From positions 50,523 through 82,522 of the forward strand of contig JASBSB010000005.1 in NCBI GenBank assembly GCA_030149205.1: a stretch of DNA of 32,000 nucleotides. Direction: 5' to 3'. The notes beneath the pieces are model-generated. The model ran no database searches. It had not been told where the DNA came from and saw only the letters and a program-made list of their open reading frames with translations. Both the position numbers and the translations under genes were made by a program. The stretch is from Candidatus Heimdallarchaeota archaeon. Lineage in GTDB: Archaea > Asgardarchaeota > Heimdallarchaeia > Heimdallarchaeales > Kariarchaeaceae. Below, in pieces: positions 20,490-27,071 of this stretch (positions within the stretch are counted from its first letter, which is position 1; the number at the start of each line of letters is the position of its first letter).

Positions 20490-20738
20490 ATGAGTGAATT
20501 AAATCAAATCAAACCTGCTGTAGTAATAGATGCTAGGGGAAGTGCTTGCCCTGGTCCAATTCTTGAAGCTAAGAAAGGAATAAGAAAAGTCAAAGTCGGA
20601 GAAATTCTTGAGGTAAGATCAAGTGATGAGGGAACTAAGCATGATCTTCCAATTTGGGTAAAGAGGTCTGGACACGAATTTCTAGGTATGGTAGAAGCAG
20701 AGGGTTACACCCGATTGTTCATAAAGAGGATGAAGTAA
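20490..20738 (+). CDS. tusA: TusA/SirA-family sulfur carrier
   Basis: IDARGSACPGPILEAKK, GEILEV.SSDEGTKHDLP.W. SD GAAGGTGA. Confidence 0.92.
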   Translation: MSELNQIKPAVVIDARGSACPGPILEAKKGIRKVKVGEILEVRSSDEGTKHDLPIWVKRSGHEFLGMVEAEGYTRLFIKRMK

Positions 20739-20764: not shown

Positions 20765-21196
20765 ATGAGTGAAGAACCAAGAATTTTGATTATTACGACA
20801 ACATCCTGTTCATATCCTGGTGTGGATAATGCAGGACAGAAACATCTTGAGTATTCCCCTCACAGCTATGTGTTAAATGTTCCTGACCCAGTGATGTTTC
20901 CAATATCCTTCTATTTAAAGGCATTTGATCTGGGGTATGACGGCATATTTATTGCATCATGTGGAACTGATAGCCCATTTAGGAAGACCTATGACAAGCT
21001 TTCTGCTCGAATTGACGAATTAGTCAAAGAAATGAAAAAACTTGGGATTCATTACTCTCGAGTCAAACTTACCGCTATTTGTACAGTTTGCGCAGACCAC
21101 TTTGTTAAGGAACTTAAGGAATTTTCAGAGACAATTGCTACATTACCAATAACAGAGGTACCAGCGGTTGAATCTGCTGGTATGGAGAGTAGTTAA
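20765..21196 (+). CDS. mvhD: MvhD/FlpD-like iron-sulfur subunit, divergent Cys pattern
   Basis: EPRIL..CSYPGVDNAGQ.HLEY, KAF..G.DGIFIASCG, GI...RVKL..I. Start at ATG 20765 with SD GAGGTG, rather than 20654. Confidence 0.78.
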   Translation: MSEEPRILIITTTSCSYPGVDNAGQKHLEYSPHSYVLNVPDPVMFPISFYLKAFDLGYDGIFIASCGTDSPFRKTYDKLSARIDELVKEMKKLGIHYSRVKLTAICTVCADHFVKELKEFSETIATLPITEVPAVESAGMESS

Positions 21197-21197
21197 C

Positions 21198-22535
21198 ATG
21201 TATGAATATGATGCATTGATTGTGGGTGCCGGGATTTCTGGAATTCAGTCTGCCATAGATCTGGGCGATATGGGATATAAAGTTCTCATGATTGATAAAC
21301 AGTCATCAATTGGTGGTACGATGATACAGCTTAGTAAAGTGTTTCCAACCTTAGACTGTGCTTCATGTATCACAACCCCTAAGATGTCTACTGCTTTTCA
21401 TCATGATAACATTGAAGTCAGGACGTTGTGTGAGGTCAAGCATTACAAAGATTTAGAAGATGGTAGATTTGAAGTTATTCTAAAACAAAACCCACGTTTC
21501 GTTGATATGGACAAATGTACTGGATGTAATGATTGTGCAGAAGCCTGCCCTGTTGCAGCAATCGATCTTGGATATGATGAAGGCATGAGTTATAAAAAAG
21601 CTGTGGGAGTGCCATTTGCAACGGCATTACCTCAAAAGGCTGCTTTAGACATAGAAAGTTGTATTTTCTGTGGTAAGTGTGCAAATGCATGTCCAACTCA
21701 AGCCATCAATTTTGATCATAGAGAAGAAGAGATTCCTATTAATGTAGGAGCCATTGTGATCGCAACCGGGTTTTACGAAACCCCCACGATCAGAGAGAAA
21801 TATGGTGGTGGTAAATTTAAGAATGTTATAACAGGAAAACAGATGGAAAGATTGCTAGCTCCAACAGGTCCTGCTGGAGGTGTATTCCGTCCATCTGATG
21901 GAAAATCACCAGGTAGCATAGCATATGTTCAATGCGCTGGATCAAGGGATGCCACAATCGGTGTCCCTTACTGCTCCTCAATTTGTTGTATGTTTGCAAT
22001 AAAACAAGCAATGTTGTTAAGTGCAGCAGTTCCATTAGCAGAGATTACAGTCTACTATATGGATATCAGGGCATTTGGAAAAGGTTACGAAGACTTTTAT
22101 GAAGAAGCTAAGGCTATGGGTGTAGAATTTGTTAAAGGAAAGGTTGCACAAATCCATGAAGATGATGAAACTAAAGATCTAACTGTTAGTGTTGAAGTTT
22201 TTGGAGAAGATGGAGGCATTCAAAAAGTTGATCACGACCTTGTTGTTCTTTCAATGGGTGTAGTCCCACAGTGGACAGCTGACATGAGTAAAATTATTCC
22301 AGTTCAGCTTGGCCCTGATCGATTTATAAGAGAGATACGTTTCACTGAGGAACCTGGTTTGACATCAATCCCAGGTGTTTTTGCCGCTGGAATGGCAACA
22401 GGGCCAAAAGATATTGTAGATTCTATAAATTCAGGTAGTTCAGTTGCTGGAAAAGTAGCACTGTGGTTATCTGGTGGATTAAGAGAGGAATATGAGGTGC
22501 AATATATCCCTCTAATTCCTACCCTTGGGAAGTGA
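21198..22535 (+). CDS. hdrA: HdrA-like FAD/Fe-S protein 1 (inserted ferredoxin, no N-terminal domain or C-terminal ferredoxin)
   Basis: GAGISG FAD motif, SKVFPTLDCASC, CTGCNDCAEACP and CIFCGKCANACP, CAGSRD..YCSSICC, YMDIRAFGKGYEDFY. Start at ATG 21198, just after the mvhD stop. Confidence 0.93.
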   Translation: MYEYDALIVGAGISGIQSAIDLGDMGYKVLMIDKQSSIGGTMIQLSKVFPTLDCASCITTPKMSTAFHHDNIEVRTLCEVKHYKDLEDGRFEVILKQNPRFVDMDKCTGCNDCAEACPVAAIDLGYDEGMSYKKAVGVPFATALPQKAALDIESCIFCGKCANACPTQAINFDHREEEIPINVGAIVIATGFYETPTIREKYGGGKFKNVITGKQMERLLAPTGPAGGVFRPSDGKSPGSIAYVQCAGSRDATIGVPYCSSICCMFAIKQAMLLSAAVPLAEITVYYMDIRAFGKGYEDFYEEAKAMGVEFVKGKVAQIHEDDETKDLTVSVEVFGEDGGIQKVDHDLVVLSMGVVPQWTADMSKIIPVQLGPDRFIREIRFTEEPGLTSIPGVFAAGMATGPKDIVDSINSGSSVAGKVALWLSGGLREEYEVQYIPLIPTLGK

Positions 22536-22540
22536 TGATT

Positions 22541-24412
22541 ATGTCTGACAAAGAGAAAAAGGATAAAAAGAAGGCAGATAAGACTGAGGAAACTCAGCCA
22601 AGAGTTGGAGTCTATGTTTGTCACTGTGGTGGAAACATCTCAGACGTTGTAGACACATCTAAGGTTTCTAAAATAATAGGAGAAGATCCAAATGTTGCAG
22701 TTTCCAAGGATTTCATTTTCATGTGCTCTGATCCAGGACAAAAGATGATTGCAGATGATGTGAAGGCAAATCATTTGGATCATGTAATTGTGGCTTCTTG
22801 TTCTCCAAGACTTCATGAAATGACTTTCCAAAGAGTAGTCTCTGATGCAGGATTAAACCCTTTCCAGTATCAACATGTAAATATCAGGGAACAAGTTTCC
22901 TGGGTTCACTCCCATCAGCACGAGGAAGCAACAGATAAATCTATAAGGTTAATTAGAGGTGCAATTGCATCCGTGTTAGATCAACCTCCTCTTGAACCTA
23001 TCAAGAAAAAGATGATCCAAAGTGCAGCTGTAATAGGTGGGGGAGTAGCAGGTATGACAGCAGCTCTTGACCTTGCGAATAGAGATATTCCAGTTCATCT
23101 CATCGAAAAAGGACCTGTGCTAGGGGGAAACCTTCTGAACCTAGATAAACTCTATCCAATGGAAATAGATGCGAAATCATTTGCATTAAATTTAGCTGAC
23201 AAAGTTTTGAAAAACCCTGCAATTTACTTACACCTTGATACAGTGGTAGATAAAACAGAAGGGGCTATTGGTGACTTTATGCTCCAACTAAAGAAAACTG
23301 AAGAGTCAACAGTCAACAAAGAGAACTTTGCGGTTTCCCTTACAGAACCCGAAAAAAATCCAGATTATGATATTTCAGTTCTCCATGTGGGCTCATTTAT
23401 TATGGCAACTGGTCATGATCTGTATGAACCTTATGAAGGTGAATATGGTTACAAAAAATCTCCATTTGTTGTTACCCTACCTGACCTTATCAAGTATCTG
23501 AATATATACAGGGGGAACACATTCGTATACAAAGGTAAAGAGATCAAAACTGTTGCAATGATTCATTGTGTTGGAAGTCGACAGATTGAAGGAGTACATC
23601 AACCTCCCCCAAGTGGAATTCTTAATACTAATTGTTCAAGAGTCTGCTGTACCACAACACTTCAACAGGCAAATAGGTTAAAATCATTATTCCCTAAGAT
23701 CCAAATCTATGATCTCTACAGAGATATAAGAACATACGGTGAAAAGGAACACTACTATGAGGAAGCATCAAAGAATAATGTGATTTTCATAAAATATCCT
23801 GATGAAGAATCACCAGAAGTAGAAATTAACGGATCATTAAAAATAAAAACACGTGATATCATAACCTATGGATTAGAGGTAGAAATGGAGGTAGATATGA
23901 TTGTTTTGGCTGTGGGGTTAATTCCTAGGATCAAACCTCATATCATAACCGACCTCTCATTACCAACTGGTAACAATGGTTTCCTTCAGGAGGCCCATGT
24001 AAAACTTCGACCAGTTGAGAGTAGCGTTCAAGGTGTTTTTCTTGCTGGAACAGCCCAGGGGCCAAAGGATGTACGAGAGAGTACGACCACAGCCTCTGCA
24101 GCAGCAGCAAAAGCGGGTGCAATCCTTACCAAAGAAAGCATTAATTTATCTCCATTTGTTGCTGTAGTTGACACTGACAAATGCCAGGGTCATGCGCTCT
24201 GTGTGAATGAATGTGAATACAATGCAATCACAATTCATGATAAAGGTGTAGGAGAGTCAGGTGTAAAAATTGCATCTGTAGATCCTTCAGCCTGTGTTGG
24301 TTGTGGGGCTTGTGTTGCTGTGTGTCCAGAACAGGCTATCCAAGTTCAAGGATATGACATCAATAAACTTGAAAAGGAAATTTCTGCTATTATGTTGGAG
24401 GTGAAGCAATAA
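22541..24412 (+). CDS. hdrA: HdrA-like FAD/Fe-S protein 2 (N-terminal domain and C-terminal ferredoxin, no inserted ferredoxin)
   Basis: VGVYVCHCGGNI, FMCSDPGQ, ASCSPRLHE, NIREQVSWVH, GGGVAG, CVGSR..CSRVCC, CQGHALC..EC and CVGCGACVAVCP. Confidence 0.93.
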   Translation: MSDKEKKDKKKADKTEETQPRVGVYVCHCGGNISDVVDTSKVSKIIGEDPNVAVSKDFIFMCSDPGQKMIADDVKANHLDHVIVASCSPRLHEMTFQRVVSDAGLNPFQYQHVNIREQVSWVHSHQHEEATDKSIRLIRGAIASVLDQPPLEPIKKKMIQSAAVIGGGVAGMTAALDLANRDIPVHLIEKGPVLGGNLLNLDKLYPMEIDAKSFALNLADKVLKNPAIYLHLDTVVDKTEGAIGDFMLQLKKTEESTVNKENFAVSLTEPEKNPDYDISVLHVGSFIMATGHDLYEPYEGEYGYKKSPFVVTLPDLIKYLNIYRGNTFVYKGKEIKTVAMIHCVGSRQIEGVHQPPPSGILNTNCSRVCCTTTLQQANRLKSLFPKIQIYDLYRDIRTYGEKEHYYEEASKNNVIFIKYPDEESPEVEINGSLKIKTRDIITYGLEVEMEVDMIVLAVGLIPRIKPHIITDLSLPTGNNGFLQEAHVKLRPVESSVQGVFLAGTAQGPKDVRESTTTASAAAAKAGAILTKESINLSPFVAVVDTDKCQGHALCVNECEYNAITIHDKGVGESGVKIASVDPSACVGCGACVAVCPEQAIQVQGYDINKLEKEISAIMLEVKQ

Positions 24413-24702
24413 TGGGAGACAAATACTTTAAGACTGCTCTGAAGACACTGAAAGAAACTCATGGACCACCGAACGAGGAGTTTGTTGCTTCCAGCCGTGA
24501 CAGGATGAAAGTAGTTAAGGGTGTTGAGAAGGTTATGAAAACTCAACATCTAAAAACTATTCCTGAAATTGCTGAAGCAACGAACTACCCAACGGACATG
24601 ATATTTAACGCAATTAATTTCTTAATGAAGTGGAATGGGTTAAGACTTATCAATAAACGTGGTGATTATCCACAATATTCATTCGAGGTGGATGAAGAAT
24701 GA
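24412..24702 (+). CDS. Small winged-helix-like protein embedded in the operon
   Basis: 96 aa, KTIPEIAEATNYPTDMIFNAINFLMKW helix-turn-helix and GDYPQY wing. TAATG and ATGA overlaps with its neighbours; SD GGAGGTGA. Confidence 0.7.
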   Translation: MGDKYFKTALKTLKETHGPPNEEFVASSRDRMKVVKGVEKVMKTQHLKTIPEIAEATNYPTDMIFNAINFLMKWNGLRLINKRGDYPQYSFEVDEE

Positions 24703-25943
24703 GTGTTTTAAAAATAAAACCAAATCTAATTGACGAAATGCAGGACTATGGTTCATTTGATGTAAACACCTGCTTCAATTGCGGGACCTGTACAGCTACC
24801 TGCCCACTTGTAAAAGAAGATAGCCAGTTTCCTAGAATGCTTATCAGACTTGCTCAACTTGGACAATCTGATAAACTGATAGCCTCTAAAGAGTTATGGG
24901 CGTGTTATTACTGCGGTGATTGTAGCGCAAGCTGTCCGAGAGAGGCAGATCCTGCAGAATTCATGATGGCATCCAGAAGATATGCAATTGCTAATTATGA
25001 CGTGACAGGAATATCGAAATCAATTTACAAAAACAAGCTTTTGGTATTTCTCTATATGCTCATAACAGGTATTATTATAACTGCAGGGTTAGTTTATGCA
25101 GACACATCTAGATTTTTTGGGAATACCGACCACAAACTTATGGGTGGATATTATTATGAGACAATCCACTATGGTGGGCTAGTATTTGGTTCTTTGTTAG
25201 GTCTTGTAATCTTGTTGGGTGTCTATAAAATGTACAGAAACATTGATCAAACTGAGCCATTACGAAAGCAGGAAGGTTTAGATACAAAGCTTTCACTTTC
25301 TGTAAAAGCTCATCTACTTTGGACTACATTCTGGGAGACCCTGATTAACGAAGGTGCACTACAAAAGCGTTTCAAGAGAGAAGATCCAAGCACACAACCT
25401 GCACACAGACCATCTAGGTGGGTTATCCATATGACTATTGTCTGGGGATTTGTGGGATTAGCTGCAGCTACAGCATTGGATTACCTTGTTAAGGATCTAT
25501 TACTTAATGACCCCGCAGGGTTTGTTCCTATTTGGTATCCAATCAGGTTGTTAGGAATCGTTAGTGGGCTACTTATGCTGTATGGAACAAGTTACTCTCT
25601 CTACTTTAGGTGGAAGAAGGTCTCAGATTATTATAATACCAGTAATTTTGATGACTGGTTAATTCTTACATTAATCTGGTTTGTTGGGTTGACTGGATTT
25701 TTAGCAACACTCTTTGTTTATCTACCACAAAATCTAGTTTTAGGCTGGATTAATGCTGTATTGATAATCCATGTTCTCACAGTCTCATGGTTGTTCATGT
25801 TGTTACCCTTTACTAAATTTGGGCACATGATGTACAGACCATTAGCACTGTGGATTTATGATTATCAGGAACAAAAAATTGCATATGCACAGTCTCATCC
25901 CATGGAAACTCCAGAACCCTCACCGGTTCTGACAATCAGTTAA
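24699..25943 (+). CDS. QmoC-like membrane subunit: HdrC-like 2x[4Fe-4S] domain fused to a NarI/HdrE-like cytochrome b domain
   Basis: CFNCGTCTATCP and CYYCGDCSASCP, about six TM helices, His in IHY, VIHMTIVWGF, IIHV and LPFTKFGH (the last two 18 residues apart). Confidence 0.85.
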   Translation: MSVLKIKPNLIDEMQDYGSFDVNTCFNCGTCTATCPLVKEDSQFPRMLIRLAQLGQSDKLIASKELWACYYCGDCSASCPREADPAEFMMASRRYAIANYDVTGISKSIYKNKLLVFLYMLITGIIITAGLVYADTSRFFGNTDHKLMGGYYYETIHYGGLVFGSLLGLVILLGVYKMYRNIDQTEPLRKQEGLDTKLSLSVKAHLLWTTFWETLINEGALQKRFKREDPSTQPAHRPSRWVIHMTIVWGFVGLAAATALDYLVKDLLLNDPAGFVPIWYPIRLLGIVSGLLMLYGTSYSLYFRWKKVSDYYNTSNFDDWLILTLIWFVGLTGFLATLFVYLPQNLVLGWINAVLIIHVLTVSWLFMLLPFTKFGHMMYRPLALWIYDYQEQKIAYAQSHPMETPEPSPVLTIS

Positions 25944-25954
25944 GAGGTGAAAAA

Positions 25955-26320
25955 ATGACCGAAAACGACCTGTTAATAATATCAACGATTGGGCCTGAGA
26001 ACCCTGAAAAGTTACTCATGCCCTTTATTGTGGCTAATACATCATTAACATTAGATATACCTGTAACTATGTTTTTCATGTCAAGTGGTGTTGAATTAGC
26101 TCTCAAAGGCAAGGCAGAGACAATTGAAAAATTGAATGATATGCCGGATTTGCCTTCACTCTTACAGACATTTGTGTCACAAGGAGGAATTATCAAACTA
26201 TGCGGGCCATGTTGCAACCATCGTAATATTAAACCTGAAGACTTAATTGAGGGTGCTGAGATAGGAGGTGCAGCTGGTTTAGTGGATTTGGTGATGGAAA
26301 GAAAAGTACTTACGTTTTAA
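25955..26320 (+). CDS. DsrE-family sulfur-relay protein
   Basis: STIGPENPEK..MPFIVANT, VTMFFMSSGVEL..KG, IKLCGPCCNHRNI, LIEGAEIGGAAGLV. SD GAGGTGA. Confidence 0.85.
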   Translation: MTENDLLIISTIGPENPEKLLMPFIVANTSLTLDIPVTMFFMSSGVELALKGKAETIEKLNDMPDLPSLLQTFVSQGGIIKLCGPCCNHRNIKPEDLIEGAEIGGAAGLVDLVMERKVLTF

Positions 26321-26336
26321 ATGAAATATATCTTAA

Positions 26337-27071
26337 ATGATTGATAGATTCGCAGATATTACATCACATCCATTAATTGAAATTATTTCTAATGAAACAC
26401 GGTTAAAAATTTTAAAACTTATTGCCTCAGAATCTAACTATGGTAACAGACTTGCCCAAATACTTAACCTATCAACCCCGGCTGTCCATAAACATATAAA
26501 AAAATTAAAAGAAAATGTTCTTGAAATATCTAAGCGTGATAAAACTAGCTTCAGTGGTAACAAAGGTGGAGAATCAACTCATTATAAAATAAATTTGAGA
26601 TCTGGGTTGGTTTTTGCAGTTTTTCCACAGTATGTACATCTTAATTTCTATAATTATACTAAAGATGATAAAATAATTCAACCTACGATAATTCCCGACG
26701 AGGTAGATGCTCAGTTGTTTGGTGTTGAATTTAAAAATGCAGACACTACCGGGAAGGGGGACGATAATCTTGGTCAAAAAATAAAAGAGATTCATACAAT
26801 AGAACAGCAAATAATTTCAAAAGAGAACGACTTAATGAGATTATTAGCAGAAAAGAATGAGGCAATCGAACAAGCATTCAGTCAGATAGACCTTGAAAGT
26901 GCACTTGATTATGATGAACGTATAATACTAAAAAGTGTGGTTAGCTACGGAATCTCAAGCCTTCGAGAAATTTCAAACCTACTTTCAAAATCTGAAGAAG
27001 AAACCCTGAAAATCGTTCTCTCTCTAAAACAGAAAGGGTGGATAGCTGACAAGCAAATCAAACCCGTTTAA
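26337..27071 (+). CDS. ArsR-family winged-helix regulator (paralog 2, no Cys)
   Basis: ISNETRLKILKLIA...LAQILNLSTPAVHKHIKKL. Same architecture as 19365-20111; 16 nt after the DsrE gene. Confidence 0.8.
   Translation: MIDRFADITSHPLIEIISNETRLKILKLIASESNYGNRLAQILNLSTPAVHKHIKKLKENVLEISKRDKTSFSGNKGGESTHYKINLRSGLVFAVFPQYVHLNFYNYTKDDKIIQPTIIPDEVDAQLFGVEFKNADTTGKGDDNLGQKIKEIHTIEQQIISKENDLMRLLAEKNEAIEQAFSQIDLESALDYDERIILKSVVSYGISSLREISNLLSKSEEETLKIVLSLKQKGWIADKQIKPV

Follow-up and report, generated by a model that had tools for sequence, protein, structure and literature searches.

Two adjacent HdrA paralogs of a Heimdallarchaeal operon as probable unlike halves of one HdrA-type dimer

A 32,000-nucleotide stretch of DNA from a Candidatus Heimdallarchaeota archaeon (assembly GCA_030149205.1, contig JASBSB010000005.1, positions 50,523 to 82,522 of the forward strand; hereafter the window) carries two adjacent genes for proteins related to HdrA, which we call HdrA1 and HdrA2. 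Our analysis indicates that the two proteins are very probably the unlike halves of a single HdrA-type dimer, which would form the flavoprotein core of a membrane complex resembling Qmo. A first-pass annotation of the window had proposed that they build an obligate, asymmetric heterodimer with one full electron wire and two flavins, and this proposal is now supported by the complementarity of the two proteins among their orthologues, by the codiversification of the two protein clades, by the finding that no other HdrA homologue is present in the organism's own genome (93.5% complete), and by a predicted interface. The module content, its conservation, the coevolution of the pair, and a confident interface prediction are results; that the proteins physically dimerize and share a cluster, in which direction the electrons run, and what the third substrate would be are inferred.

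Modules were mapped by aligning each protein against all Protein Data Bank (PDB) chains, among which HdrA is represented by PDB 5ODC, 8RVU, and 9SFI, and the iron–sulfur clusters (HA1 to HA6) were assigned to domains according to PMC9012536 and PMC12350162. All coordinates are window positions, and HdrA2 residue numbers are those of the translation of window positions 22538–24412 (Table 1). HdrA1 residues 5–428 correspond without notable gaps to residues 146–569 of M. thermolithotrophicus HdrA (5ODC, E 2e-114; 9SFI, E 2e-123), a span that comprises the thioredoxin-reductase-like flavin domain and an inserted 2×[4Fe–4S] ferredoxin. The N-terminal cluster domain (N-domain) is absent and has no room upstream, where the gene begins 1 nucleotide past the mvhD stop codon, and the C-terminal ferredoxin is absent as well, there being merely 17 residues beyond the core. 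In HdrA, the partner subunit contributes its Cys197 to complete the N-terminal cluster (PMC9012536). Cys54 and Cys57 of HdrA1 are the equivalents of Cys194 and Cys197 of the M. thermolithotrophicus protein, and the DCASC motif that holds them is predicted to supply the N-domain cluster of HdrA2 with its fourth ligand. By analogy, the insert of HdrA1 would carry the equivalents of HA5 and HA6 and serve as the low-potential exit, and its HA4-type cluster would be the high-potential exit. Glu217 and Lys269 align with E356 and K409 of 5ODC, and HdrA1 is predicted to be the bifurcating subunit.

HdrA2 aligns with 5ODC in two blocks (residues 3–236 and 315–649), which hold the N-domain, a flavin domain lacking the insert, and the C-terminal ferredoxin. 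The first motif of this ferredoxin reads CxxHxxCxxxC (24182–24214; His at 24191–24193) and the second motif is complete. Because His takes the place of the second Cys in motif 1, one of the two C-terminal clusters has only three Cys ligands, a pattern that suggests either a [3Fe–4S] cluster in the arm or a [4Fe–4S] cluster with a non-Cys ligand. Both proteins show the FAD-binding fold (GxGxxG) together with Pfam matches to Pyr_redox_2 and NAD_binding_8. Against the NCBIfam HdrA/HdrA2 models, they score 450 and 477 bits, which is below the cut-off of 1100, as neither protein spans more than a portion of the model. The first-pass annotation had described these complementary module sets, including LYPMEIDAKS at the DCxxC site of HdrA2, and had assigned a flavin motif and a CxGSR..CSxxCC cluster to both proteins; the 5ODC alignment, the translations, and the Pfam matches bear out this description. 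We also considered that the missing modules might persist as diverged remnants. This explanation was rejected because HdrA1 has no space for them upstream or downstream and the linker of HdrA2 is free of Cys, and the modules are truly absent in the alignment to the Methanothermococcus structure.

Table 1. Genes and motifs of the HdrA1/HdrA2 operon, in window positions
Feature	Position	Strand	Basis
TusA sulfur-carrier gene, first in the conserved operon	20490..20738	+	Pfam PF01206, 80.7 bits
Free-standing MvhD/FlpD-like [2Fe-2S] adaptor subunit	20765..21196	+	Pfam PF02662, 68.7 bits
HdrA1, 445 residues	21198..22535	+	5ODC HdrA match, E 2e-114
HdrA1 DCASC motif, Cys54/Cys57	21354..21368	+	translation, alignment
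HdrA1 inserted ferredoxin, two complete CxxCxxCxxxC motifs, eight Cys	21474..21737	+	Pfam Fer4 families
HdrA1 CAGSRD...CSSICC, HA4-type cluster beside the flavin	21933..21989	+	translation, alignment
HdrA1 bifurcation residues Glu217 and Lys269, flanking CAGSRD...CSSICC	21846-21848 and 22002-22004	+	
HdrA2, about 625 residues	22535..24412	+	5ODC HdrA match, E 1e-109
HdrA2 N-terminal domain, Cys28/Cys30/Cys63/Cys88, site of the HA3 "shuttle cluster"	22595..22942	+	
HdrA2 CHC motif	22619-22627	+	translation
HdrA2 LYPMEIDAKS, Cys-free, at the DCxxC position	23150..23179	+	alignment, translation
HdrA2 36-residue Cys-free linker in place of the inserted ferredoxin	23285..23392	+	alignment, translation
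HdrA2 Ile318 and Gln376, replacing the bifurcation residues Glu and Lys	23489-23491 and 23663-23665	+	
HdrA2 CVGSRQ...CSRVCC, HA4-type cluster	23567..23650	+	alignment, translation
HdrA2 C-terminal ferredoxin, HA1/HA2 equivalents	24155..24352	+	Pfam Fer4_7, translation
Small 96-residue open reading frame between hdrA2 and the qmoC-like gene	24412..24702	+	overlaps both neighbours
QmoC-like membrane subunit	24699..25943	+	NCBIfam qmoC NF038018, 204 bits; Pfam Fer4_8, Nitrate_red_gam
DsrE-like sulfur-carrier gene, closes the conserved operon	25955..26320	+	Pfam PF02635, 50.6 bits
ArsR-type regulator	26337-27071	+ (co-directional)	

By scanning a collection with one genome per prokaryotic species, we found the asymmetric pair in at least 600 stretches, and we examined the best 80 loci, which come from Heimdallarchaeota, Chloroflexota, Desulfobacterota, Armatimonadota, Planctomycetota, Acidobacteriota, and Bacteroidota. 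The resulting orthologue tables comprise 79 HdrA1 and 67 HdrA2 proteins from these seven phyla. In every HdrA1 orthologue, Asp53, Cys54, Cys57, Lys269, the eight Cys residues of the insert, and the four of the HA4-type cluster are invariant, whereas both N-domain and C-terminal ferredoxin are absent; the residue equivalent to Glu217 is Glu in 77 proteins and Asp in 2. All HdrA2 orthologues retain the four Cys residues of the N-domain and the four of the HA4-type cluster, and Cys is missing from the DCxxC site throughout. The position of E356 is mostly Ile (Glu in 6 proteins), and that of K409 is never Lys and mostly His, Gln, or Asn. Seven Cys residues are conserved in the C-terminal ferredoxin of HdrA2, six of them invariantly and the second Cys of motif 2 in 65 of the 67 proteins, and the second position of motif 1 varies among T, S, C, H, A, and N. 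The HdrA1-type form of 445 residues is itself no rarity: of 8000 database proteins that were scored, more than 7600 match it at E <1e-20. Its best database matches listed are 409–465 residues long, and its closest named relatives come from Heimdallarchaeota metagenome-assembled genomes.

The region of HdrA2 orthologues that corresponds to the insert is 14–54 residues long and contains 0–1 Cys, except in Chloroflexota, where it reaches 84–90 residues with 2–6 Cys. In the long inserts (for example, at Chloroflexota loci L007, L017, L021, and L025, and in some HdrA2-like proteins of other Asgard archaea), the retained Cys residues are exactly those of one cluster, the four that would ligate it. 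The sequence of forms looks like a decay series, in which these proteins would stand partway along the path to losing the inserted ferredoxin.

We computed a maximum-likelihood tree from 344 shared core columns of the operon orthologues, other Asgard pairs of short and long proteins, four canonical Asgard HdrA proteins, and QmoA and QmoB from Desulfobacter curvatus. All short (A1-like) proteins form one clade that adjoins canonical HdrA, with a Shimodaira–Hasegawa-like approximate likelihood ratio test (SH-aLRT) value of 97, and all long (A2-like) proteins form another (SH-aLRT 96). Within the two clades, the loci fall into mirrored subclades (L099/L101; L104/L107/L112/L114; L124/L126; L127/L128/L133/L134; and the operon group), which indicates that the pair arose once in this HdrA lineage and diversified as a pair. 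These pairs span several operon types, some with MvhD downstream and without QmoC. Recent fission of a fused HdrA was rejected because the A1-like and A2-like proteins constitute two deep clades with mirrored subclades. Pairs and fusions of about 1000–1170 residues are both common in Asgard genomes. Single open reading frames of approximately 1000–1230 residues that match HdrA2 plus HdrA1, and that hold 37–42 Cys, are likewise common there. Loci with such A2-like plus A1-like fusions (L103, L105, L108–L111, L115, L117–L120, L123, and L125) coexist with unfused pairs that have MvhD downstream.

To obtain a model of the complex, residues 18–545 of HdrA2 were combined with residues 1–432 of HdrA1. 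The predicted complex has an ipSAE (interaction prediction score from aligned errors) of 0.90 versus 0.00 for the best of three controls, a mark that, in a benchmark, 58 of 80 solved complexes attained, as did 2 of 110 mismatched pairs. At least 94% of the contacts are shared between runs, and the pLDDT value (predicted local distance difference test) of the partner is at least 88. HdrA1 residues 53–54 and 57–58 face HdrA2 residues 30–31, 60–66, and 88 in the interface; overall, HdrA2 residues 30–31, 60–66, and 88–96 touch HdrA1. The predicted contacts therefore place the Cys residues of the HdrA1 DCASC motif at those of the HdrA2 N-domain.

A scheme for electron transfer can be proposed by borrowing the paths established for methanogen HdrA. 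The Qmo-like membrane complex would be made up of MvhD, HdrA1, HdrA2, perhaps the 96-residue protein, and the QmoC-like subunit, which is the likely partner of the HdrA pair. HdrA2 would furnish a mobile arm consisting of its N-domain with HA3, its C-terminal ferredoxin with HA1 and HA2, and, presumably, bound MvhD. HdrA1 would constitute the whole bifurcating core with its FAD, Glu217 and Lys269, Cys54 and Cys57, HA4, and HA5/HA6, and its Cys57 would serve as the fourth ligand of HA3. In HdrA, HA3 shuttles the low-potential electron toward HA5′/HA6′ in the insert, and the high-potential exit, which leads to HdrC, is HA4′ (PMC12350162). The low-potential branch of the proposed complex would run through HA5/HA6 in the inserted ferredoxin of HdrA1 to ferredoxin, and the high-potential branch would lead from HA4 into the QmoC-like subunit, through its HdrC-like di-cluster domain, and on to quinone.

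The flavin domain of HdrA2 keeps its FAD motifs and an HA4-type cluster but has lost the CxxC motif, the insert, and the Glu/Lys pair, and it would be served by no arm. Most likely, by analogy with the second half of BamE, its flavin is structural or nonbifurcating, and HdrA2 is predicted to be the arm-donating subunit. BamE belongs to class II benzoyl-CoA reductase and was found by cryo-electron microscopy to be an asymmetric HdrA dimer fused into one protein, whose arm and insert clusters occur in a single set and wherein the FAD with Lys280 at N5 bifurcates and that at Gln768 was judged to be structural (preprint 10.64898/2026.04.10.717634). Going by this published description, the Lys/Gln pair of BamE is paralleled by Lys269 of HdrA1 and Gln376 of HdrA2. 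However, BamE is a single polypeptide with permuted domains, and its partners are BamD and BamBC rather than a QmoC-type membrane subunit. Given Ile318 and Gln376 in HdrA2 and the parallel with BamE, "one full wire and two flavins" is a fair description of the pair, with the proviso that HdrA2 retains an invariant HA4-type cluster of its own.

Several considerations weigh against the interpretation of HdrA1 and HdrA2 as halves of one dimer in which only one flavin bifurcates. What is known of the pair comes from sequence and prediction. The complex score may reflect likeness to the solved HdrA homodimers, and what the prediction shows is a retained HdrA-type interface, which would also be compatible with homodimers. 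The N-domain has four invariant Cys residues of its own, and the presumed need for Cys57 is taken over from published structures. Moreover, HdrA2 keeps an HA4-type cluster and its FAD motifs, and its flavin may be more than structural. Finally, among 15 A2-like proteins of other Asgard operons, Lys is kept in 6 and Glu in 7, and therefore the loss of these residues is not general to this architecture.

Other explanations were weighed as well. HdrA1 and HdrA2 might act separately, HdrA1 as a homodimer that represents a minimal HdrA with a ferredoxin exit, like HdrA of class A6 or sHdrA, and HdrA2 as a homodimer or as a monomer with MvhD, so that the adjacency of the genes would reflect a shared pathway. 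The Hyphomicrobium sHdrA (PDB 6TJR, 349 residues), which is matched by both proteins, indeed lacks accessory domains, and both proteins keep the FAD motifs and the HA4-type cluster. Yet a homodimer of HdrA1 would leave the invariant Cys54 and Cys57 without a cluster to complete, a homodimer of HdrA2 would have arms but neither CxxC, bifurcation residues, nor a low-potential exit, and the losses are reciprocal in every orthologue of two families that codiversify. We therefore consider separate action improbable. A heterodimer in which both flavins are catalytic is a better candidate, although still an unlikely one. The flavin and HA4-type cluster of HdrA2 would then form a second, nonbifurcating active site, acting on a sulfur-carrier persulfide or a pyridine nucleotide, for example, and the complex would have two points of entry or exit instead of a single wire and a structural flavin. 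The invariance of the FAD motifs and of the four HA4 Cys residues in the 67 HdrA2 orthologues suggests selection beyond a role in structure. Canonical QmoB has lost the HA4 Cys residues, and genes for TusA and DsrE stand beside the HdrA1/HdrA2 pair at nearly all loci. Against a second active site, the HdrA2 flavin is served by no arm, CxxC, or insert, the equivalent second FAD of BamE was judged to lie away from the branching point, and no substrate-binding feature was identified in HdrA2.

The two proteins could also be taken for canonical QmoA and QmoB, delivering electrons to adenosine 5′-phosphosulfate (APS) reductase in sulfate respiration, from which MvhD has split off. As reference for canonical (type I) QmoABC (Pires 2003; Ramos 2012, PMC3333476), we used the aprBA–qmoABC locus of D. 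curvatus (L095), in which AprA (942 bits) and QmoC (478 bits) score above their cut-offs. Its QmoA resembles HdrA1 in that it has the core with the insert and the Cys197 equivalent but neither the N-domain nor the C-terminal ferredoxin, and its QmoB resembles HdrA2 in that it combines N-domain and C-terminal ferredoxin with a core from which Cys197 and the insert are missing. In both systems, the pair is followed by a membrane subunit of the QmoC type. The claim of the first-pass annotation that the pair departs from the usual QmoA/QmoB division finds no support, since the D. curvatus proteins divide the modules identically. The accompanying observation that MvhD is separate rather than fused proved correct: MvhD is fused to the C terminus of D. 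curvatus QmoB and has its own gene upstream of hdrA1 in the window. Other differences concern the insert, where QmoA has 5 of the 8 Cys residues and HdrA1 all 8, and the second subunit, where QmoB has lost the HA4 Cys residues but kept the Lys and Glu equivalents, which is the reverse of HdrA2.

Despite the common division of modules, membership in canonical Qmo was rejected, and we regard it as the least credible of the explanations, with a very low probability. The organism's genome has no AprA above the cut-off and no NIR_SIR (sulfite-reductase) domain, and the operon is not linked to apr genes, unlike D. curvatus Qmo. The QmoC-like subunit falls short of the NF038018 cut-off of 300 bits, which the true QmoC of D. 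curvatus exceeds. In addition, D. curvatus possesses the present operon (L034) besides aprBA–qmoABC, and methanogen HdrA is a far closer match to both HdrA1 and HdrA2 (E 1e-110 or better) than QmoB is (E 1e-14). QmoA and QmoB of D. curvatus are only distantly similar to the pair and lie outside the A1-like and A2-like clades, where they group together, with a very long branch (1.8) leading to QmoB. Forcing QmoA into the A1-like clade is disfavored by the approximately unbiased (AU) test (p 0.012), a value that has to be read with the caveats that the group was named after the tree had been seen and that long branches are involved. An independent origin of the Qmo split is thus only suggested. 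The term "type II" QmoAB(C) has been used for qmoAB-like genes that are nearer to hdrA than to bacterial qmoAB and that occur with or without Dsr/Apr (Neukirchen 2023, PMC10504309). Being much nearer to HdrA than to D. curvatus QmoA and QmoB, the HdrA1/HdrA2 pair would fit this type as it is described there.

The closest solved relatives of the pair are the HdrA proteins of methanogens (Mvh/Fdh/Elp–HdrABC; PDB 5ODC, 7BKB, 8RVU, and 9SFI; E 1e-110 to 1e-123), whose six cluster sites and FAD site can all be mapped on HdrA1 and HdrA2. In the methanogen complexes, no HdrA subunit lacks any of the modules, each arm works on the flavin of the partner, and the dimer is symmetric with two wires. In the HdrA1/HdrA2 pair, by contrast, each module is present once per dimer, except for the FAD and the HA4-type cluster.

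The principle of such a complementary split is already known from ANME (anaerobic methanotroph) HdrA pairs, class A6, QmoAB, and BamE. A claim of novelty for it therefore fails, and these systems are instances of what the first-pass annotation had listed as grounds for refutation, a described family that has the split as its standard architecture. Tandem HdrA5/6 and HdrA12/13 of ANME and Moorella, together with the fused HdrA3/4, show complementary loss of the N-domain and of Cys197, and heterodimers have been proposed for them (Chadwick et al. 2022, PMC9012536). The same pattern describes the present pair: HdrA2 is the copy with the N-domain and without Cys197 in 67 of 67 orthologues, and the adjacent HdrA1 lacks the N-domain and has the DCxxC Cys residues in 79 of 79. 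The genes are adjacent in both systems, and a symmetry-breaking heterodimer was proposed for the ANME pairs. They differ in that the short copy comes first here, within a TusA–MvhD–...–QmoC-like–DsrE operon that provides a membrane anchor, and in that HdrA2 has additionally lost the whole insert and the Glu/Lys pair. HdrA class A6 (PMC12054007) counts among the described systems with this kind of architecture. HdrA3/A3′, from the genome paper of Desulfobacterium autotrophicum, are possibly related.

The genes of the operon are co-directional and tightly packed, in the order TusA, MvhD, HdrA1, HdrA2, the 96-residue open reading frame, QmoC-like subunit, DsrE-like protein, and ArsR-type regulator. 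The mvhD stop codon and the hdrA1 ATG are 1 nucleotide apart, hdrA1 and hdrA2 overlap by ATGA, hdrA2 and the 96-residue frame by TAATG, and this frame and the qmoC-like gene by ATGA. The probable start codon of HdrA2 is the ATG at 22535, which shares the ATGA with the HdrA1 stop codon. In the NCBIfam HdrA2 and VhuD models, it is the MvhD end to which the MvhD protein aligns, and the QmoC-like subunit joins an HdrC-type di-cluster domain to a membrane domain of the cytochrome b type. The 96-residue product has a weak winged helix-turn-helix (Sul7s-like) match and occupies the same position in two other Asgard operons (34–42% identity), and D. curvatus has a 111-residue open reading frame without a Pfam match at the equivalent site. 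The product may be an unrecognized extra subunit of the complex.

The gene order TusA–MvhD–HdrA1–HdrA2–QmoC(-like)–DsrE recurs at every locus with sufficient flanking sequence, with TusA 5′ of mvhD at essentially all related loci and DsrE downstream at most of them. At Desulfobacterota loci, the QmoC-like gene is replaced by small HdrC-like and CCG-domain (HdrB-like) genes, with DsrE still next; in D. curvatus (L034:9463–10696), these are a 100-residue HdrC-like di-cluster gene and a 319-residue CCG-domain gene. This exchange indicates that the operon exists in a soluble variant and a membrane variant. The genome of the organism under study has no [NiFe]-hydrogenase large subunit above the cut-off, and its single CCG-domain (HdrB/HdrD-type) protein (G000:C4:577536–578174, L002), which lies in a 695-residue open frame containing two CCG domains, is unlinked to the operon. 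A search of two genomes from the same genus (G016 and G037; 89% complete) did not find the operon, and two Asgard genomes that are more distant (L135 and L136) possess it, which amounts to a patchy distribution. Lateral transfer of the operon is possible.

That TusA and DsrE so constantly accompany the pair hints at carrier-bound sulfur as a possible substrate, and our search of the literature on the TusA–MvhD–HdrA–HdrA–QmoC–DsrE operon found no characterization. We tentatively offer the idea, as one with a modest chance of being right, that the pair is the core of an uncharacterized and very widespread flavin-based bifurcating or confurcating enzyme with sulfur carried by TusA/DsrE as its third redox partner. 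Carrier-bound sulfur would then replace hydrogenase or formate dehydrogenase, interacting through MvhD or through the flavin/HA4 site of HdrA2, which is conserved though nonbifurcating. The high-potential partner would be quinone in the QmoC variant or a CCG-type HdrB-like subunit in Desulfobacterota, and ferredoxin would be the low-potential partner.

Taken as halves of one dimer, HdrA1 and HdrA2 offer a clean illustration of how reciprocal loss can turn a symmetric bifurcating dimer into one that is obligately asymmetric. The assignment marks HdrA1 as the subunit expected to hold the bifurcating flavin and HdrA2 as the supplier of the arm, which is useful for expressing the complex and solving its structure. 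The question of real interest is the role of the operon as a whole. If the complex does act on carrier-bound sulfur, it would be a main link from the quinone pool to the ferredoxin pool and back in a Heimdall-type archaeon that lacks Apr, Dsr, and [NiFe] hydrogenase.

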